Of a stretch of 64,000 nucleotides of DNA, positions 2,112 through 21,533 are shown in pieces. The stretch is taken from the NCBI GenBank assembly GCA_903841185.1, contig CAIMIV010000003.1, forward strand, positions 773 to 64,772, read 5' to 3'. The translations under genes and the position numbers were made by a program. Source of the stretch: an uncultured bacterium (lineage in GTDB: Bacteria; Patescibacteriota; Minisyncoccia; Moranbacterales; UBA2206). Each line of letters starts with the position of its first letter. The first letter of the stretch is position 1. The notes under the pieces are model-generated. The model did not search any database. It was not told the origin of the DNA and worked only from the letters and a program-made list of their open reading frames with translations.

Positions 2112-2980
2112 TAGATGCATATCTCACACACCTCGCAATTTTAATTGGAATTTATTCGATTCTGGCCATATCCCTCCAGCTTTCTTTGGGCTATGGTGGA
2201 TTATTGAATTTGGGGCACTTTTCCTTTTTTGGCATCGGGGCCTATGCTTCAGCTCTGCTTTCTGTGGAAGGCGTTCCCTTTGTAATTTGTCTGTTGTTTG
2301 CCGGAATGGTCGCTGCTTTTTTCGGATGGCTGTTGTCAATTGCGACAAATAAACTAAAGGGTGATTATTCCGCGTTGGTGACACTTGGTTTTTCATTTGT
2401 TGTCTATGCTGTTCTGCTAAACTGGGTTGCGTTGACCAATGGGTCATTGGGGATAGCGGGCATTCCTAGGCCAAATTTTTTAGGAATAGATTTTTCGAAT
2501 AATCTATATTTTTTGCTATTGGTAGTTTTTATCGCCCTCCTTTCCTATCTTTTTATACGGAAAATTTGTAGTTCATCATTCGGCAGGGCGCTAGAATCGA
2601 CAAGAGACGATGAGCTGGCGGCAAAATTGTTGGGGAAAAATACCACCAAGCTCAAGCGGGCGTCTCTTTTGATCGCCGCTTTTTTTGCCGGCATTTCCGG
2701 CAGTCTGTTCGCCGCATATATTACCTTCATTGATCCCTCATCTTTTACTTTTACGAATTTGATTCCTATCCTATCGATTGTAATAGTCGGGGGATTGGCG
2801 AGTTTACCGGGTACGATTGTAGCAACCGTCGTGGTAGTGCTGTTGCCGGAGCCCTTTCGTTTTATTGGCTTCCCGACATCCATTCTCGGTCCGATAAGAC
2901 AAATTATGTATGCAACGATTTTGCTTTTAATAATTTATCTTAAACCCCGGGGTTTTTATGGGAAAATTGATTTAGAATAA
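2108..2980 (+). CDS. livM: Branched-chain amino acid ABC transporter permease (LivM-like)
   Basis: Second permease of the operon. ATGA overlap with livH. Hydrophobic LivM-like profile. Confidence 0.75.
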   Translation: MIDAYLTHLAILIGIYSILAISLQLSLGYGGLLNLGHFSFFGIGAYASALLSVEGVPFVICLLFAGMVAAFFGWLLSIATNKLKGDYSALVTLGFSFVVYAVLLNWVALTNGSLGIAGIPRPNFLGIDFSNNLYFLLLVVFIALLSYLFIRKICSSSFGRALESTRDDELAAKLLGKNTTKLKRASLLIAAFFAGISGSLFAAYITFIDPSSFTFTNLIPILSIVIVGGLASLPGTIVATVVVVLLPEPFRFIGFPTSILGPIRQIMYATILLLIIYLKPRGFYGKIDLE

Positions 2981-2982
2981 CT

Positions 2983-3714
2983 ATGTTAAAAATACAGAAC
3001 TTATCGAAAAAATTTGGCGGAGTGATGGCGGTTGATAACTGCTCTTTTGAAATTGAAACGGGCAAGATCACAGCATTGATTGGCCCCAATGGCTCGGGCA
3101 AAACAACACTTTTCAATCTTATCTCTGGAATTGAAAAACCAGAAAAGGGAACCATCTTTTTCAATGGAGGTGATATAACAAGATGTTCAATCGAGCAAGT
3201 TTCAAATTTTGGAATTTCGCGAGTTTTTCAACAATCAAAATTATTTAAAAATCTTACCGTCAGGGAAAACCTGCTTTTAGCCATCGATAACGAGGACACA
3301 AAATTTTGGAAAAGCCTATTGGGGTCAAATAAGATCACTGAAGGAAAAGAGACAAAACTAAAAGAAGTATTGAATGAATTAGGAATTTCAAAAATTAAAG
3401 ACAAGCTGACGAGCGATTTGAGTTTTGGGCAAAAAAGATTAGTCGAATTGGCAAGGGCGCTGCTGAATTCGCATCATCTTTTGCTGCTTGATGAGCCAGT
3501 TGCCGGCGTGAATCCAAAAATCAAAAAAGATGTCGCTAAACTGCTGTTGGATTTAAAGAAGGGAGGACAAACCATATTGTTGATTGAGCATGACATGTCG
3601 TTTACAGCCAGTATCGCAGATCGCATAGTAGTTATGGATTCCGGCGGGGTAATCGCCCACGGTTCGCCTAGTGAGATAAAAAACAACAAGCAGGTCCTGG
3701 CGGCCTACTTGTGA
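2983..3714 (+). CDS. livG: Branched-chain amino acid ABC transporter ATP-binding protein (LivG-like)
   Basis: Walker A 'GPNGSGKTT', signature 'LSFGQKRLVELARAL', Walker B 'LLLLDEP'. Confidence 0.8.
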   Translation: MLKIQNLSKKFGGVMAVDNCSFEIETGKITALIGPNGSGKTTLFNLISGIEKPEKGTIFFNGGDITRCSIEQVSNFGISRVFQQSKLFKNLTVRENLLLAIDNEDTKFWKSLLGSNKITEGKETKLKEVLNELGISKIKDKLTSDLSFGQKRLVELARALLNSHHLLLLDEPVAGVNPKIKKDVAKLLLDLKKGGQTILLIEHDMSFTASIADRIVVMDSGGVIAHGSPSEIKNNKQVLAAYL

Positions 3715-3726
3715 TTGCAAAGACGG

Positions 3727-4440
3727 TTATACCGCAATATCTCCGCCGAAATAGATATCTTTAATTTTTGTATTTTCCAAAATTTCCTTGCCGCCCTCCA
3801 GGGCAACTTCTCCGCTTTCTAAAACATACGTCCTGTCCGCTATCTCGATAGCCTGTTTCGCATTTTGTTCGACCATAAGAATAGCGATGCCTTCATTTCT
3901 GATTTCTTCAATCTTTGCAAAGATCTCTTTCATGGTCTTCGGGTCTAATCCCAGAGAGGGTTCGTCCATGAGCAGCAGCTGTGGATTTTGAATCAAGGCT
4001 CTTGCGATAGCTAGTAACTGCTGTTGCCCCCCGGACAGATTTCCCGCGAGCTCCCCCTGTTTGCTCTTGAGTATGGGGAATTTTTTAAAAACGTCGTTTA
4101 TATTTATTTCCGCCACTTTTTGGTCTGTAATTACAAAAGTGCCCATCTGCAGATTTTCCAAAACGGTCATGCTCGCAAAAACTTGCCGTCCTTGCGGAAC
4201 AAAGCTGATTCCGAGCTCAATTAACTCATGCGTCTTCAATTTGGTTATATCCTTGTCTTTGAAAAATATCTTACCCTCAAAAATATCAGCCAAACTGAAA
4301 ATACTCTTAAGGACTGTCGACTTGCCAGCCCCATTGGGTCCGATCAAGGCGACTATCTCGCCAGCGCCAACATTCAAATTGAGCTTGTGCAAAACCTCAA
4401 TGCCATTATAGCCAGCTTTTAAATTTTGTATTCTAATCAT
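3727..4440 (-). CDS. livF: Branched-chain amino acid ABC transporter ATP-binding protein (LivF-like)
   Basis: Walker A 'GPNGAGKST', 'LSGGQQQLLAIARAL', 'LLLMDEP'. The track start at 4497 is a TTG; the ATG at 4440 ('MIRIQNLKAGY') is the more likely start. Confidence 0.8.
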   Translation of the reverse strand: MIRIQNLKAGYNGIEVLHKLNLNVGAGEIVALIGPNGAGKSTVLKSIFSLADIFEGKIFFKDKDITKLKTHELIELGISFVPQGRQVFASMTVLENLQMGTFVITDQKVAEININDVFKKFPILKSKQGELAGNLSGGQQQLLAIARALIQNPQLLLMDEPSLGLDPKTMKEIFAKIEEIRNEGIAILMVEQNAKQAIEIADRTYVLESGEVALEGGKEILENTKIKDIYFGGDIAV

Positions 4441-5695: not shown

Positions 5696-6009
5696 ACGAT
5701 TATTGCTTAAAAATTATTAACTACCAACATTATGCCGCATTGATGTTGCGGCTATTAATCTCCCAAGAACGGCTAAATTTGTGAGATGTTTTTCAAAGAA
5801 CTGGTGTCAGATGTTTTATCTCCGCTCTCATCTAGACTACGAATTATAGCACTTTTTTGGCAACTAGTCCATAGTTGACGACTAGAGCGGAATTATCGGC
5901 CAGTGGGCTATGTGATGTTTTGGCTTGTTACTTGCAATATTTGCTATGATATGCTACAATTTAGTTGTTGTCATAATTGGTGACAGTAACTAATAATAAC
6001 CGTAATTTT

Positions 6010-6750
6010 ATGCATATAGAAGAATTGATCAATGCTGGACTCAGTGAACATGAGGCCAAAGTCTATTTGGCGGCGCTGGAGTTGGGCGAAACCAGTGTTT
6101 ATCGCTTGGCCAAGAAATCTGGTGTCAAAAGGACTACCACCTATTTGGCGGTGGAATCTTTGAAGGGGAAAGGCTTGATCAGCGCTTTTCAGCGCAACAA
6201 CGTCACGCTTTGCTATGCGGAAAGCCCAAAGAAGTTGGCGGTGGCGCTGGAGGAAAAGAAAAAATCCCTAGACCGGATTATGCCGGAACTGTTGGCGTTT
6301 AATAATCTGATGGATAAAAAGCCTAAGATCAAATATTTTGAAGGGCGAGAGTCCTATAAAGAGGTTTTCGACGATGTCTTGAAATATCCTGGCACGGAAA
6401 TGCTGGCAACTTTCAATGAAAAGTTTTGGAATCGAGACAATTATTTTGTCGGCTATTTTATGCCGAAACGCAAAGAAAAGAAGATTTGGGCACGAGAACT
6501 GTTTCAGGATAGTCCGGAATTGCGAAATCTGAAAAACGAGGAACGGCTGCATTTTTTCCAAAGCAAGCTGGTGCCGGGAGATAAATTCAAAATTGAGATT
6601 GAAATGGTCATCTACGGGAACAACAAGGTAGGATTTGTTTCCTATGATGAAGAGATTGCGATTATTATTGAAAGTCAAAAAATCCATGATACGCAAAAAA
6701 GTTTTTTTGAAACGATCTGGAGCTTGTTGCCAGAGCACAAGAGTAAATAA
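6010..6750 (+). CDS. TrmB-family HTH transcriptional regulator, paralog P2
   Basis: 'LSEHEAKVYLAALELGETSVYRLAKKSGVKRTTTYLAVESLKGKGLI' plus the C-terminal 'IAIIIESQKIHDTQKSFFETIWSLL' box. The track start 5977 is a TTG; the ATG at 6010 is preferred. Confidence 0.7.
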   Translation: MHIEELINAGLSEHEAKVYLAALELGETSVYRLAKKSGVKRTTTYLAVESLKGKGLISAFQRNNVTLCYAESPKKLAVALEEKKKSLDRIMPELLAFNNLMDKKPKIKYFEGRESYKEVFDDVLKYPGTEMLATFNEKFWNRDNYFVGYFMPKRKEKKIWARELFQDSPELRNLKNEERLHFFQSKLVPGDKFKIEIEMVIYGNNKVGFVSYDEEIAIIIESQKIHDTQKSFFETIWSLLPEHKSK

Positions 6751-10969: not shown

Positions 10970-11272
10970 ATGAAAATAGTCATAAAAAATATCACCAGCA
11001 GCCCGGTGGTCATCTTGCGTAGAGCCGGCTATACTTTCCAGCGGAATGAAGGCGGGGAAATGAGCTTTGTGCGTCCTTTGGCCCGGGCGGGCTACCCGCG
11101 CTTTCATATGTATGTATTAGCGACGGGAACGGATATGGAGATTAATTTCCATTTGGATCAAAAAAAAGAAACCTATGGGACGGGGACGCGGCATCACGGG
11201 GAATATGAAAACGATGGGGCGTTGCGAGTTGAGGCGAAGCGCATCATGGAGATCTTGGCAAAAATGGGGTGA
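10970..11272 (+). CDS. Hypothetical small protein
   Basis: 100-aa ORF 19 nt downstream of the previous gene, probably co-transcribed. Confidence 0.35.
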   Translation: MKIVIKNITSSPVVILRRAGYTFQRNEGGEMSFVRPLARAGYPRFHMYVLATGTDMEINFHLDQKKETYGTGTRHHGEYENDGALRVEAKRIMEILAKMG

Positions 11273-11343
11273 TTTTCAGGGGCGCTGGCGAACCCTTGCC
11301 AAAAGAGGGAAATAGTACTACACTAGATTATGTATTTTAGAAT

Positions 11344-11389
11344 GCCGCGGTGGTCCTCCTTCGCTAAAGCTACGGATGGACAACGGGTG
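11344..11389 (+). ncRNA. Conserved tRNA-Leu-upstream element, copy 1 (unknown function)
   Basis: GCCGCGGTGGTCCTCCTTCGCTAAAGCTACGGATGGACAACGGGTG. The first 10 nt are identical to the 5' end of the tRNA-Leu 57 nt downstream. Homologous to copies at 21286 and 13175. Confidence 0.4.
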
Positions 11390-11446
11390 TTTTTGAAAAC
11401 TAATATTGTACAATAGAAAGGGCATTACGAAATTTTAATGCAGTAT

Positions 11447-11530
11447 GCCGCGGTGGTGAAATTGGTATACACGCCAGTCTTAGGAACTGGTAGGCTTACC
11501 CCTGTGGGAGTTCGAGTCTCCCCCGCGGCA
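11447..11530 (+). tRNA. tRNA-Leu (anticodon TAG)
   Basis: Cloverleaf with acceptor GCCGCGG/CCGCGGC, anticodon loop CTTAGGA, long variable arm, T-loop TTCGAGT. Confidence 0.85.
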
Positions 11531-11608
11531 CTTCGATTCATTCGCTGAAAGCGAATTCACTCAGTGTAAACACATTTAATGTTCAATGCTGAGGTATAGT
11601 ATAATAAT

Positions 11609-12556
11609 ATGCAAAAAATAGTAATCGATGAAGACGGCGCTGGTGAGCGTATTGATAAATTCCTGAAAGAGGGATTTTTTTTAAGTGAGGAGATCACCCG
11701 CGGGGATATCATCCGCAGTATTCGGGAAGGGGCGATTATGGTGAATGAAAAAGCTATTAAACCTAGCTATATCTTAAAAGAAGGAGATGTGGTTGTGATT
11801 GACATCATCAAAGAAAAAGAAGAATTGATTCCCAACACCAAAATCCAACTAACGCTTGTGTATCAAAATGAAGATTTTCTGATTATCAATAAGCAGGCTG
11901 GCTTGCAAGTGCATCCCAGTGACAGTGAAAAAGAGGCGACATTGGTAAATGCATTGATTGTGGCCTTCCCGGAGATCAAGAATATTAATGATGGCTCGCA
12001 AGACAGCTGGATGCGTCCTGGGATTGTGCATCGCTTGGACAAAGACACGAGTGGGATTATGGTAGTGGCTAGAAATAAAAAAACCTTCGATGAATTGAAG
12101 CGCCAATTTGCGGACAGGGAAATTACTAAAAATTATGTGGCTTTAGTATATGGTAATTTAGAAAACAAGACGGGGATAGTGGATCTGCCGATTGCCAGAG
12201 CGGCTAGTTTTAAGAAACAAAAAATTGCCCGCGGAAAAACCAAAGGCATCGCCAGGCAGGCCATCACGGAATATAGCGTATTGAAACGCTACGCGGAGTT
12301 TGATTTTGTGGAGGCGATCCCGAAAACTGGCCGGATGCATCAAATCCGAGTGCATTTGGCGTCGCTGGAGCATCCTATTGTGGGAGACTGGAAATATCGG
12401 CGGAAGAACATTGTTCAAGTTGACGCGGTGCGAAGGCACCTGTTGCACGCCCAAAAATTGAGTTTTACGTTGGCAGGGCAGCAATTTGATTTCATCGCCG
12501 AATTACCGGAGGATTTTAGAGGATTCCTGCAGGGGCTTGACGAAAAGCAGATATAA
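11609..12556 (+). CDS. rluD: RluA-family 23S rRNA pseudouridine synthase (RluD-like, with S4 domain)
   Basis: Catalytic 'HRLDKDTSGIMVVARN' motif; N-terminal S4-like region. Confidence 0.8.
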   Translation: MQKIVIDEDGAGERIDKFLKEGFFLSEEITRGDIIRSIREGAIMVNEKAIKPSYILKEGDVVVIDIIKEKEELIPNTKIQLTLVYQNEDFLIINKQAGLQVHPSDSEKEATLVNALIVAFPEIKNINDGSQDSWMRPGIVHRLDKDTSGIMVVARNKKTFDELKRQFADREITKNYVALVYGNLENKTGIVDLPIARAASFKKQKIARGKTKGIARQAITEYSVLKRYAEFDFVEAIPKTGRMHQIRVHLASLEHPIVGDWKYRRKNIVQVDAVRRHLLHAQKLSFTLAGQQFDFIAELPEDFRGFLQGLDEKQI

Positions 12557-13174: not shown

Positions 13175-13224
13175 GCCTTCGTGGCCCGTCTCGCCCGAGG
13201 CGTGCTCGCCGAGGCGGATGGAAT
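13175..13224 (+). ncRNA. Conserved tRNA-Leu-upstream element, copy 3 (diverged, with internal 14-nt tandem duplication)
   Basis: GCCTTCGTGGCCCGTCTCGCCCGAGGCGTGCTCGCCGAGGCGGATGGAATGG shares TGGCCC...CGCC..GAGGC..GGATGG with copies 1 and 2. Its first 7 nt complement the 3' acceptor CGAAGGC at 13442. Confidence 0.35.
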
Positions 13225-13285
13225 GGTATATTCACCCCGCACCATTTCACATTTCGCAGTAAACTGGTATGATATGTTTAGTTGG

Positions 13286-13367
13286 GGGAGTATGGTGGAA
13301 TGGTATACACACATGCTTGAGGTGCATGGGTCGTAAGACCGTGAGAGTTCGAGTCTCTCTATTCCCA
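13286..13367 (+). tRNA. tRNA-Leu (anticodon GAG)
   Basis: Acceptor GGGAGTA/TATTCCC (one G-U), anticodon loop TTGAGGT, long variable arm, T-loop TTCGAGT. Confidence 0.8.
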
Positions 13368-13384
13368 CGAGTGGAAAATGGTGC

Positions 13385-13449
13385 TGGGGCAAGCATGCAA
13401 GAGGCACATGGATTGTAAGGTCGTGCGAGTTCGAGTCTCGCCGAAGGCA
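13385..13449 (+). pseudogene. 5'-truncated/degenerate tRNA-Leu(GAG)-like copy
   Basis: Intact T-arm GCGAG-TTCGAGT-CTCGC and 3' acceptor CGAAGGC-A. The anticodon region 'CATGC AAGAGGC ACATG' is degenerate (no U33) and no 5' acceptor strand is present locally. Confidence 0.5.
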
Positions 13450-13840: not shown

Positions 13841-14503
13841 ATGAAAATAAAAGAGGAAAAAAATAAAGCATTTGATCTCCGGAGGGAGGGCAAGAGCTAC
13901 AGGCAAATAGCAGAGCTTTTGGATATAAGTAAAAGTACGTTATCTGGTTGGTTTAGGGATGTTGATTGGTCTCAAGATATCAAAAAACAGTTAATTGAAA
14001 AGTCAAAAGGGGCTAGTCGAAAAAGATTGCTTCAGCTAAATGATCTGAAAAAGAAAAGATGGAGCGAATGTTATGTAAGAGCAGAAAAAGAGGCAATTAC
14101 TGAATTTGAAAATTTAAAAAAAGACAAATTGTTTATAGCGGGCATGGCATTATATTGGGGAGAGGGAGATAAAATATGGAAGAATGGCATTATTAGAATA
14201 TCCAATACAGATGAAAAGATGTTGCGAGTGTTTAATGAATTTTTACAAAAAATTTGCAAGGTGGAGAGAGAAAAAATTAGAGCGGGAATTTTACTGTATC
14301 CAGACTTGGATTCGGAGGAGCGCTTGAAATTTTGGAGTGAAAGTATTAGAATATCTAAGGAGAGGTTTTTTAAATCGACTGTGATACAGGGAAGGCATAA
14401 AACTAAAAAAACAGGCAGCGGAGTGTGTATTGTTTCAGTAGGTGATAAATATTTGAAAAAGAAGTTATTGACTTGGCTAGATTTGTTCATTGGAGAATTT
14501 TAA
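13841..14503 (+). CDS. HTH-domain protein with LAGLIDADG-like core (possible free-standing homing-endonuclease-like gene)
   Basis: N-terminal 'GKSYRQIAELLDISKSTLSGW' HTH; central 'LFIAGMALYWGEGDK' resembles a LAGLIDADG motif. Sits between the tRNA-Phe/Val and tRNA-Gly genes. Confidence 0.4.
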   Translation: MKIKEEKNKAFDLRREGKSYRQIAELLDISKSTLSGWFRDVDWSQDIKKQLIEKSKGASRKRLLQLNDLKKKRWSECYVRAEKEAITEFENLKKDKLFIAGMALYWGEGDKIWKNGIIRISNTDEKMLRVFNEFLQKICKVEREKIRAGILLYPDLDSEERLKFWSESIRISKERFFKSTVIQGRHKTKKTGSGVCIVSVGDKYLKKKLLTWLDLFIGEF

Positions 14504-21093: not shown

Positions 21094-21186
21094 ATTGACC
21101 ACAGGGGATATTTTTGGTAAGCTGAAAGAGCTAGAATTTTAGTGAAAATCACAGTTTTTTGATTAAGTCCGTTAAGACGGACGAGA

Positions 21187-21257
21187 AAGTATGAATGGTC
21201 CGATGGCCGAGCGGTTAGGCAAGGGTCTGCAAAACCCTGTACAGCAGTTCAAATCTG
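21187..21257 (+). tRNA. tRNA-Cys (anticodon GCA)
   Basis: Acceptor GGTCCGA/TCGGACC, anticodon stem AGGGT/ACCCT with loop CTGCAAA, T-loop TTCAAAT. Confidence 0.85.
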
Positions 21258-21285
21258 CTTCGGACCTCATAGATGCATAAAATAG

Positions 21286-21330
21286 ACATAATCCTGCCCG
21301 GGTGGCCCTCCTGCGCCAAGGCTACGGATG
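21286..21330 (+). ncRNA. Conserved tRNA-Leu-upstream element, copy 2
   Basis: GCCCGGGTGGCCCTCCTGCGCCAAGGCTACGGATGGGCGAGGTTG. The first 10 nt are identical to the 5' end of tRNA-Leu(TAA) 58 nt downstream. Confidence 0.4.
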
Positions 21331-21387
21331 GGCGAGGTTGTAAATGCATTTCGAGCTAAATAGATATTAGGAGTAGTACGAAGTTTT

Positions 21388-21470
21388 AACGAAATATGCC
21401 CGGGTGGTGAAATGGTAGACACAAGGGACTTAAAATCCCTCGATCGAAAGGTCATGCGAGTTCGAGTCTC
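21388..21470 (+). tRNA. tRNA-Leu (anticodon TAA)
   Basis: Acceptor GCCCGGG/CCCGGGC, anticodon stem AGGGA/TCCCT with loop CTTAAAA, long variable arm, T-loop TTCGAGT. Confidence 0.85.
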
Positions 21471-21533
21471 GCCCCGGGCACCCCCGTAAAGTCGCTTTGC
21501 TCCCACGGGGCAAGCCGCATAAAGTAAATAAAA

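Follow-up and report, generated by a model that had tools for sequence, protein, structure and literature searches.

Why should a tRNA gene be preceded, about 100 nt upstream, by a copy of its own 5′ end? The question is posed by a stretch of 64,000 nt of DNA (hereafter the window) from an uncultured bacterium of the Moranbacterales (Patescibacteriota, lineage UBA2206; GenBank assembly GCA_903841185.1, contig CAIMIV010000003.1, positions 773 to 64,772 of the forward strand). The window holds ten tRNA genes as called by ARAGORN and Rfam, three of which are tRNA-Leu genes: tRNA-Leu(TAG) at 11447-11531, tRNA-Leu(GAG) at 13286-13368 and tRNA-Leu(TAA) at 21398-21483. A previous sequence-only reading had proposed a conserved element upstream of tRNA-Leu genes, the acceptor part of which co-varies with the cognate tRNA. 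The explanation that we consider the most probable, with a confidence moderately above even, is that a small insertion led by a hairpin regenerated the tRNA 5′ end and is now carried as a long leader, which would make the element a scar of mobile DNA and not a control RNA of tRNA-Leu.

At the TAG locus, the eleven bases comprising T-1 and G1-G10 (TGCCGCGGTGG) stand at 11343-11353 and again at 11446-11456, the latter being the start of the tRNA gene, and at the TAA locus TGCCCGGGTGG is found at 21295-21305 and again at 21397-21407, with G1 of the tRNA at 21398. Both repeats are exact copies of positions -1 to +10 of their own gene, spaced 103 nt (TAG) and 102 nt (TAA) apart, in agreement with the claim that the first ten bases of the element equal those of its own tRNA. 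The copies of the two loci differ from each other at acceptor positions 4 and 5, where each matches its own recipient gene, and conservation between the loci begins exactly at the T before GCC, with none further upstream. The left copy at the TAG locus (relic 1, 11343..11353, forward strand as are all window features described here) retains 10/10 bases in the relatives L005 and L006, and its counterpart at the TAA locus (relic 2, 21295..21305) lies 28 nt past tRNA-Cys (21197-21268). Each right copy is continuous with an intact gene, as called by ARAGORN and Rfam for tRNA-Leu(TAG) (11446..11531; Rfam tRNA 57.9 bits; predicted cloverleaf) and for tRNA-Leu(TAA) (21397..21483). The copies are each followed by a core, CCTCCTKCGCYAARGCTACGGATGG, which occurs exactly twice in 64 kb (0 expected from 100 shuffles), and a box, TACGAARTTTTAAYG, stands 6 nt ahead of each tRNA (11426-11440 and 21377-21391). 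Conservation of the core thus held up; the box, also part of the earlier proposal, was present at both loci, although in its degenerate form and taken alone it was not significant in the 64-kb window. The second element likewise exists, although its span had been placed about 10 nt too low (21286..21330 in place of 21296-21340). That neither element is a second tRNA was borne out as well, as ARAGORN and Rfam called nothing at 11344-11446 or 21296-21396, where tRNA sequence is limited to the first 10 nt. Among 74 ARAGORN tRNAs in the fetched sequences, only tRNA-Leu and one tRNA-Val had their first 10 nt repeated exactly upstream, and all loci with such copies are Moranbacteria loci.

The origin of the upstream copy becomes apparent when the loci are compared with those of relatives, which are denoted here by L numbers. 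A gene of the RluA family (RluD) adjoins tRNA-Leu(TAG), with its best named homologues in metagenome-assembled genomes of Candidatus Moranbacteria and Parcubacteria; a protein identical to it is encoded on ENA and Logan metagenome contigs. The RluD neighbourhoods of relatives were obtained by exact-protein look-up, or for L010-L012 by an RluD profile scan of genome contigs, which with its generic back-translated motifs otherwise returned mostly unrelated phyla. RluD identity to the window was 89% for L005, 74% for L006/L007 and 73% for L008. In L008 the TAG site is empty, and promoter and leader run directly into the tRNA (TTGCCAAAG..TAAACTAAGTTATGTATTTTGACA|TGCCGCGGTGGTGAAATTGG, also written ..TTGCCAAA..TAAACTAAGTTATGTATTTTGACA|TGCCGCGGTGGTGAAATTGG). 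The filled sites of the window, L005 and L006/L007 share this promoter and leader, followed by TGCCGCGGTGG, approximately 90 nt, (T/G)GCCGCGGTGG and the remaining tRNA, so that relic 1 holds the position relative to promoter and leader that the tRNA start holds in L008. Relic 1 is still joined to the native promoter and leader, and relic 2 is still joined to the tRNA-Cys spacer. At the TAG locus the site is also empty in L131, L133 and L134, and at the TAA locus there is no insert in L008, L131 and L012, where tRNA-Leu(TAA) begins 11-13 nt past tRNA-Cys, with the distance being 16 nt in L136; in L135, no tRNA-Leu(TAA) gene was found within 10 kb of RluD. The empty-site relative L131 has the same TAA acceptor, GCCCGGG.

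As judged from these alignments, the upstream copy is shown to be the displaced original 5′ end, with approximately 91 nt inserted between G10 and U11 and an 11-nt duplication of the target, since in the relatives with empty sites the promoter and leader, or the tRNA-Cys spacer, abut the tRNA itself. The identity between each copy and its cognate tRNA is explained because each target was duplicated, and functional covariation is not needed; the acceptor part that had seemed to co-vary is a target duplication by this comparison. The notion of a conserved tRNA-Leu upstream element, for which absence in close relatives had been named as one form of counter-evidence, largely fails on the empty sites listed above, although L005 and L006 do carry the element. 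It was found only in the clade formed by these two genomes and the window, which are grouped together in a neighbour-joining tree of RluD that places every empty genome outside. For the TAG locus, a single insertion in the ancestor of this clade appears to be the simplest history.

What was inserted could be partly resolved. The left 32 nt of the insertion constitute a GC-rich palindrome of 10 bp with one bulge and a 3x3 internal loop, located at 11354..11385 for copy 1 (the stem reaching from 11353, which is G10 of the tRNA, to 11381) and at 21306..21337 for copy 2. With the T of TGG as position 1, the base pairs are 3-31, 4-30, 5-29, 6-28, 7-26, 8-25, 9-24, 13-20, 14-19 and 15-18, and base 27 is bulged. 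In an alignment of 30 distinct hairpin sequences, 97.7% of the cells pair, 0/500 shuffles reached the observed score and no slid register came close, and two-sided changes were found at three pairs: 4-30 (CG/UA), 13-20 (GC/AU/UA) and 15-18 (CG/UA). Positions 30 and 31 lie outside the pattern used to search for the sequences, which leaves the covariation that they show with positions 4 and 3 free of search bias. The covariation in these sequences supports the 10-bp hairpin, for which compensatory change had been suggested from the two window copies; the changes noted at that time correspond to two of the three two-sided pairs. Fold z-scores were not significant, neither for the window element nor for the precursor fold, and it is covariation, rather than folding energy, that supports the hairpin. 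A covariance model (R1) built from the 30 distinct copies recovered copy 1 at 11351-11386 (54.9 bits, E 2e-15) and copy 2 at 21303-21338 (54.1 bits, E 4e-15), and across the window only these two reached significant scores. The TAA hairpin carries a variant G at position 11 which, among 39 distinct family sequences, is common only to it and the TAG copy of L006.

The same paired changes could in principle be read as synonymous third-position changes in a small encoded peptide (MPRWSSFAKATDGQR...). The GCT/GCC, AAA/AAG and GGA/GGG differences do fall on third codon positions in one frame, which is also the frame translated where the hairpin sits in real proteins. The start codon, however, is not kept (AAGGCC in L005, CCTGCC at copy 2), the frame stops after 20-24 codons, at sites that are unrelated, and the changes at 4-30, 13-20 and 15-18 follow base-pairing, including a partner outside the search pattern. 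A small open reading frame (ORF) in the element was rejected on these three counts, and a peptide is scarcely credible as an explanation.

The hairpin is not confined to tRNA-Leu. When JGI metagenomes were scanned with TGGYCCTCCTNCNCYAARGNTWCGGAYGG, it turned up on 41 contigs, only a few times upstream of tRNA-Leu, and copies occur inside protein-coding genes, beside other tRNA ends and in intergenic DNA inside longer palindromes, which leaves the implied tRNA-Leu-specific element unsupported. In-frame inserts of about 11 codons (W-S/P-S-F/Y-A-K-A-T/S-D-G-Q) were found in genes resembling those for ValRS, IleRS, TspO and MnmA, and a variant copy in a MetRS-like gene was matched by model R1. 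Altogether, the in-frame hosts comprise ValRS-like (L095, L097, L106, L108, L112), IleRS-like (L104), MetRS-like (L099:583), MnmA-like (L107) and TspO-like genes (L098, L100, L102, L120, L122) as well as RluD of L132 (L132:10058). Class I aminoacyl-tRNA synthetase genes and genes for tRNA or rRNA modification are prominent among these hosts, and the inserts of 9-11 codons nearly always follow a Trp codon, as found with the TGG-demanding pattern. TGG precedes the hairpin in all pattern matches, and as TGGYCCTCCTNCNCYAARGNTWCGGAYGG demanded TGG this association with TGG or Trp is biased; model matches free of the requirement follow CTC, GCC or CGG. The RluD copy of L132 is an in-frame hairpin of 27-30 nt that is missing from seven other RluD genes, and at L103:2397 (2380-2450, minus strand) one hairpin is nested within the loop of another. 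Nesting, together with presence or absence between orthologues, is a hallmark of mobile DNA.

A further arrangement was seen at LeuRS-like 5′ ends, where the first ~36 nt of the ORF (…KIExKW), i.e. about 12 codons, are doubled with the hairpin between the copies (L126, L105, L101, L110, L118, L099 and L091, plus L092/L093, L117 and L090). In seven loci the resulting mini-ORF of relic and hairpin ends in a TGA that overlaps the true ATG (ATGA), and in three there is an in-frame fusion; L105 has two tandem LeuRS start units. The ATGA overlap suggests translational coupling. In a scan of viral contigs with the hairpin core there was one match, at 5776-5800 of the GC-rich IMG/VR contig L138, in frame as PPSFAKATDGEG, and a second similar stretch of this contig reads PSFAKAPEGK. 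No report of the peptide SFAKATDG or of palindromic in-frame elements in Parcubacteria or the wider candidate phyla radiation (CPR) was found in the literature searched, and no description of the hairpin family or of the tRNA-Leu architecture in CPR was found in full-text literature of incomplete coverage.

To the right of the hairpin, each insertion continues into a tail of approximately 58 nt. The tail of insertion 1 (11386..11445) ends with the box TACGAAATTTTAATG (11426-11440) followed by CAGTA, and is homologous to the tails at the TAA locus and in L006; that of insertion 2 (21338..21396) contains the box TACGAAGTTTTAACG (21377-21391) and no promoter-like site. The three available tails are similar (p=0.015 between insertions 1 and 2, p=0.003 between insertion 2 and L006), with similarity peaking in AATAGA…TACGAARTTTTAAYGNARTA, and the box is restricted to filled sites among all fetched loci. 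Neither tail is similar to its own upstream flank (p=0.64 and 0.21) or to the tRNA, and the idea that the tail arose by duplication, either from the native flank upstream or from the D-arm of the tRNA, was rejected as not significant. Given this similarity between the tails, and the lack of one to their own flanks, hairpin and tail are likely to have moved together, and the sequences indicate that they probably form one unit of ~91 nt in two different tRNA-Leu genes. A gene conversion from one tRNA-Leu gene into the other is disfavored, as it would be expected to leave a donor-type right repeat and a mismatched acceptor whereas both repeats are of the recipient type; target-site duplication accounts for both recipient-type repeats at once. 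A stem-loop formed by the box was also considered; it can be predicted for the window and L006, but the sequence of copy 2 does not allow it.

These data also bear on a scheme in which tRNA-Leu and its upstream region were first duplicated in tandem, the hairpin then entered the redundant copy, and the 3′ part of this copy was later deleted. Longer decaying relics, both with a palindrome, are indeed present elsewhere (bases 1-44 of tRNA-Leu(GAG) in L008 and a near-full pseudo-tRNA at the TAG locus of L010), the duplicated LeuRS starts span 36-48 nt, and L105 has undergone a recent tandem re-duplication. The tails, however, are similar to each other and not to the sequence upstream of their own relics, the relic ends at exactly the same base (G10) at both loci, and the scheme would require three independent rare events twice over. 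We therefore regard it as very unlikely.

The genes are probably still served by their original promoters. At the TAG locus, a native sigma-70-type promoter (TTGCCA-17 nt-TACACT, 11296..11324) now stands upstream of the relic and is the same in the empty sites of L008, L131 and L133. Promoter and leader are identical at 41/48 positions between the window and L006, as compared to 20/73 at four-fold degenerate sites of the adjacent RluD gene, so this promoter appears to be still under selection where the insertion is present. Upstream of the TAA gene lies tRNA-Cys, with a promoter (TGnTAAGCT) that is kept in relatives. No promoter-like site was found inside insertion 2, and a new promoter supplied by the element was rejected, as the sole candidate in insertion 1 (TGGACA-18-TAATAT) is not kept at copy 2 or in L006; that the element does not look like a simple promoter, as previously remarked, is consistent with this. 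No intrinsic terminator-like site was found in the element. In the predicted fold of a 204-nt precursor, the acceptor stem uses the downstream copy and the relic is held in local structure. Promoter context, this model and the conservation of native promoter, relic and hairpin far above synonymous sites suggest that transcription runs through relic, hairpin and tail, producing a long leader, and that RNase P would cut at the downstream copy. As a separate observation, the window has ~80 extra bases at 21110-21196, between the tRNA-Cys promoter (TTGACC..TGGTAAGCT) and tRNA-Cys, in comparison with L008 and L131. These may be a remnant of a GIY-YIG gene, as L139 has one there.

The insert itself has changed less than expected of neutral DNA. 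Between the window and L006, 10/10 positions of the relic, 22/32 of the hairpin (with compensatory changes) and 15/23 of the box are identical, each above the four-fold sites given above, and between the window and L005 the mid-tail is identical at 34/39 positions as compared to 45/87 four-fold sites. This conservation, together with the compensatory changes, is what a functional structured leader of pre-tRNA-Leu, as implied by the sequence-only reading, would show, e.g. one in which a decoy acceptor strand and a hairpin modulate RNase P or the stability of the precursor. The same unit is moreover retained with the same spacing (101-103 nt) at two tRNA-Leu genes, and a link to the leucine system is possible given that the hairpin lies 10-15 nt upstream of the true LeuRS start codon in several lineages. 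Against this, the element is missing at these tRNA-Leu genes in most of the relatives and is thus not needed for their expression, and the hairpin is found in frame in ValRS-, IleRS- and MetRS-like, TspO, MnmA and RluD genes as well as in intergenic palindromes. The predicted pairing partner of the relic in the window is missing in L006, fold z-scores were not significant, and there was no Rfam match. We consider a functional leader unlikely as the explanation of the element.

The third tRNA-Leu gene of the window has an upstream structure of its own, which had been overlooked in the earlier reading. The 5′ relic of an old tRNA-Leu(GAG) gene (G1-G10, GCCTTCGTGG, 13175-13184) is followed by a different palindrome of 34 nt (13185-13218) and by D-loop bases 11-22 (13219-13230). 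A spacer with an extended -10 promoter (13246-13273) then leads to a replacement tRNA-Leu(GAG) at 13286-13368 (13231..13368 in total) with a different acceptor stem (GGGAGTA/TATTCCC) and T stem. Downstream, a decayed 3′ relic of the old gene (13369..13449), not called by ARAGORN or Rfam, ends in CGAAGGC-A, complementary to the 5′ relic. In L005, L006, L131 and L134, an intact copy of the old gene (GCCTTCG…CGAAGGC) stands 5-10 nt past rplS. The composite is common to the window and L133 (253/278 identical, 91%) and also present in L132, with a patchy distribution on the RluD tree, and in that of L132 the palindrome at almost this position belongs to another family (GCCTGCCTGCCGGTAGGCAGG).

Relics of this general kind recur. 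Longer relics or pseudo-tRNAs with palindromes stand directly upstream of intact genes in L008 (GAG), L133 (CAG) and L010 (TAG), and upstream relics are found almost only at tRNA-Leu (12 Moranbacteria loci). A second palindrome family, (T)CCTGCCTGCCGGCAGGCAGG, was observed in the D-loop of tRNA-Leu relics in L008 (5552-5572), L133 (~9400) and L132 (~11590), in the last of which its position almost coincides with that of the 34-nt palindrome found in the window and L133. On an unrelated CPR contig (L119, 474-725), the nested arrangement recurs for tRNA-Leu(CAG), with the old gene (GGGTGCG..CGCACCC) split by a hairpin of the family described here, a spacer and a new tRNA with the acceptor GCCGTGA. 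Acceptor stems of tRNA-Leu isoacceptors were also seen to switch between GCC.. and GGG.. (L132, L133, L135 and L137 as against the window, L005, L008 and L131), for instance GCCGCGG and GGGGATG for TAG or GCCCGGG and GGGCGAG for TAA, with the D and anticodon arms nearly unchanged.

Homing endonucleases are found at tRNA 5′ ends in three of the relatives. In L006, the tRNA-Val(TAC) locus (5787-6168, equal to L135 11787-12168) consists of relic bases 1-24, the palindrome TCCCGAGTACTCGGGA, which takes the place of an anticodon-stem strand, more of the relic, and an 86-aa GIY-YIG ORF (Pfam E=1e-17) whose stop codon lies inside the intact tRNA-Val; the window and L005 are without this arrangement. 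An HNH endonuclease ORF lies between tRNA-Cys and tRNA-Leu(TAA) in L137 (3410-3950, minus strand as fetched), and in L139 an 84-aa GIY-YIG ORF (3674-3933) lies between the conserved promoter and tRNA-Cys, ending 5 nt before the latter. Such stand-alone endonucleases suggest themselves as a possible mobilizing enzyme of the insertions. No endonuclease ORF or recognizable fragment was found in either window insertion. As a side observation, contigs L139 and L140 both end 33-34 nt past tRNA-Cys, after a small palindrome (TCTGGCTTCGCCAGA), as if a repeat had broken the assembly.

It could accordingly be argued that the window insertions are degenerate remnants or non-autonomous derivatives of a homing-endonuclease cassette that invades tRNA genes, the ~58-nt tail being the residue of an endonuclease gene. 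In such a cassette, a 5′ relic, a palindrome, an endonuclease gene and an intact tRNA would split the recognition site and render the carrier immune, and the tRNA-Val locus of L006 displays exactly this architecture with a live GIY-YIG gene. The ORFs of L137 (at the TAA locus) and L139 point in the same direction, as does the GAG composite, whose high identity and patchy occurrence are as predicted by horizontal homing. In addition, the box in one frame reads Y-E-I/V-L-M/T-Q/K-Y, and in L006 this frame stops just before the tRNA. On the other hand, besides the lack of any endonuclease gene or fragment in the window insertions, random decay would not yield two tails of near-equal short length at different loci, and had homing carried the unit from TAG as donor to TAA, the right repeat should be of the donor type, where both repeats are of the recipient type. 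On balance, this origin is a serious rival of low probability in our judgment, similar to that of a functional leader.

The insertion of a small mobile unit with duplication of the target remains the reading that we prefer, and its course could have been as follows. Hairpin and tail would form a small non-autonomous unit that entered one tRNA-Leu gene and later the other, duplicating 11 bp of the target as by staggered cleavage and fill-in. Only those insertions that restored the 5′ end of a single-copy essential tRNA gene would have survived. The old promoters would still drive transcription through relic, hairpin and tail, and RNase P would remove a leader of ~120 nt at the downstream copy. 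The hairpin may be kept as a cis-element of the mobile family, and possibly also to fold on itself and spare the folding of the tRNA.

Several observations weigh against this interpretation. The conservation of relic, hairpin, box and mid-tail exceeds the neutral level by the comparisons above, which a pure scar would not show; the leader may be constrained, through harmless folding or an acquired role, or alternatively tRNA regions may move horizontally and hence be younger than the genomes that carry them. The unit of hairpin and tail is carried by two loci only, and the similarity between tails is modest. Terminal inverted repeats are absent when the left end (TCCTCCTTCGC) is compared with the reverse complement of the right end (ATACTGCATTAA), with the palindrome being internal to the left end of the unit only, and no transposase or other mobilizing enzyme was identified among the ORFs near the loci. 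The comparison of empty and filled sites at the TAA locus is confined to the window, L008, L131, L012 and L136. Finally, the relics at window position 13175 and in L133, L132, L119, L008 and L010 differ in architecture, with longer relics, another acceptor stem in the new gene and other palindrome families among the differences, and not all of them may go back to one mechanism.

A broader and more tentative proposal, which we hold to be possible without favoring it, is that the hairpins represent an undescribed CPR class of ultra-small hairpin-led mobile elements (27-34 nt alone, ~90 nt with tail) that have repeatedly entered translation genes, i.e. tRNA-Leu at G10/U11, LeuRS-, ValRS-, IleRS- and MetRS-like genes after a Trp codon, and MnmA and RluD. 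Their survival would depend on keeping the reading frame or on a second copy of the target 5′ end, be it the tRNA 5′ end or the LeuRS start with its coupled upstream mini-ORF. They would be mobilized perhaps by stand-alone GIY-YIG nucleases, and some copies, including the two in the window, would since have become domesticated components of precursor leaders.

The element was compared to known systems. Rfam 15 at gathering thresholds returned only the ten tRNAs in the window, and in a permissive search of 11250-11560 the best non-tRNA match was CopA with 17.5 bits against a gathering threshold of 60 (E=1.2), so that the Rfam scan proposed earlier yielded no RNA family for the element. The 11-nt repeats and the empty sites in relatives are as expected of the target-site duplication made by a miniature inverted-repeat transposable element or a derivative of a DDE transposon; the classical form of these was rejected, as there are no terminal inverted repeats. 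A repetitive extragenic palindromic (REP) or IS200-IS605 type element, i.e. a substrate of an HUH enzyme, is disfavored given the 11-nt duplication and no Y1/HUH transposase among the ORFs near the loci. A tRNA-targeting integrative element, in which an att repeat of the 3′ part of the tRNA would stand at the far end of a large element with an integrase, was rejected, as the repeat here is of the 5′ end and the insert is only ~91 nt without an ORF, and a group I intron is at odds with the insertion at 10/11, the intact tRNA downstream and no Rfam intron match. A homing-endonuclease cassette in the strict sense, with an ORF inside the insertion, was likewise rejected for both insertions, such ORFs being found at analogous places in relatives. 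The properties of mitochondrial GC clusters are all represented: a short GC-rich palindrome, dispersal, filled and empty sites, in-frame copies and nesting. This likeness is one of functional kind and not of sequence family.

Among bacterial systems, Rickettsia palindromic elements, reportedly described by Ogata et al. in 2000, are said to be palindromic repeats of 100-150 bp that lie in frame in essential protein genes and are translated. We know of no tRNA-gene duplication described for them, and the present elements share the in-frame location in essential genes but are only 27-34 nt long. REPs and REPINs are imperfect palindromes of 20-40 nt that follow a short motif (GTAG), are dispersed, are recognized as hairpins, and are mobilized by RAYT transposases, which are HUH enzymes similar to those of IS200/IS605; REPs are extragenic and present in hundreds of copies. 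To our knowledge, they do not make target duplications. Common to both systems are short dispersed palindromes, and the present ones often follow TGG, which the search pattern demanded; the window has two copies in 64 kb, and no RAYT gene was seen. SegB of phage T4 is reportedly a free-standing homing endonuclease in a tRNA cluster, and cleavage followed by repair allows this tRNA region to spread. Seg homing has, as far as we know, not been described as duplicating part of the 5′ end of its target tRNA; the GIY-YIG and HNH genes at tRNA 5′ ends in L006, L137 and L139 are reminiscent of this system, in contrast to the two window insertions with their lack of an endonuclease gene.

Yeast mitochondrial DNA, a compact and AT-rich genome, contains short GC-rich palindromes known as GC clusters, which like the byp elements of Magnusiomyces are regarded as mobile (PMC8811140). 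The clusters are found in intergenic regions and in frame in var1, are often transcribed, and are hot spots of recombination and gene conversion, and their short terminal repeats (AG/TAG) have been interpreted as target duplications (PMC8811140). The likeness thus extends to palindromes in a compact genome, to in-frame and intergenic copies and to apparent target duplications, while the elements described here differ in their CPR bacterial host, their sequence family, the 11-nt duplication that regenerates a tRNA 5′ end and the ~58-nt tail. In Neurospora mitochondria, conserved GC-rich PstI palindromes flank tRNA genes and have been discussed as processing signals (Yin, Heckman & RajBhandary 1981, as summarized in PMC8811140). 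As far as that summary describes them, they share with the present case a conserved GC-rich palindrome adjoining tRNA genes, but flank the genes, whereas here the palindrome is inside a displaced tRNA-gene fragment and relatives are without it. Within the same phylum, tRNA genes are interrupted by self-splicing group I introns, which lie in the anticodon loop (33/34 to 36/37) and duplicate no exon sequence (PMC13011429); the present insertion is at 10/11 with an intact tRNA downstream, so splicing is not needed. By analogy, we judge that the hairpin family and the tRNA-Leu architecture resemble known palindromic mini-elements in behavior, as a variant without earlier description found in the CPR literature searched, the coverage of which was incomplete.

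For motif hunting upstream of tRNA genes, the case calls for caution, as an apparent RNA covariation with the cognate tRNA arose as a by-product of insertion. It also indicates that dispersed, very small palindromic insertions disrupt or lengthen essential genes, namely those for tRNA-Leu, several aminoacyl-tRNA synthetases and RNA-modifying enzymes in streamlined CPR genomes, and are tolerated via in-frame placement or duplication of the target 5′ end. If truly mobile, the family would offer a new handle on the persistence of selfish DNA in genomes of ~1 Mb and a way into studying how quickly tRNA-Leu genes and their acceptor stems turn over among close Moranbacteria relatives. It would also mislead annotation, through false small ORFs, extended proteins and missed pseudo-tRNAs, and would be a likely cause of assembly breaks.

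Two minor observations concern the surroundings of the loci. Between RluD and rplS, L001 differs in length from the window by 155 nt (4006-4104), which is a scaffold gap of Ns with duplicated flanks, and an insertion as the cause of the difference in L001/L002 was ruled out in favor of an assembly artefact. In the tRNA array, tRNA-Val and tRNA-Gly are 32 nt apart in L005, which is without a 220-aa ORF that ends 4 nt before tRNA-Gly and has an N-terminal helix-turn-helix domain only (HTH_23/HTH_38). This ORF is located at 13841-14503 in the window, at 6278-6940 in L006, and at both 11760-12419 and 12612-13274 in L134.

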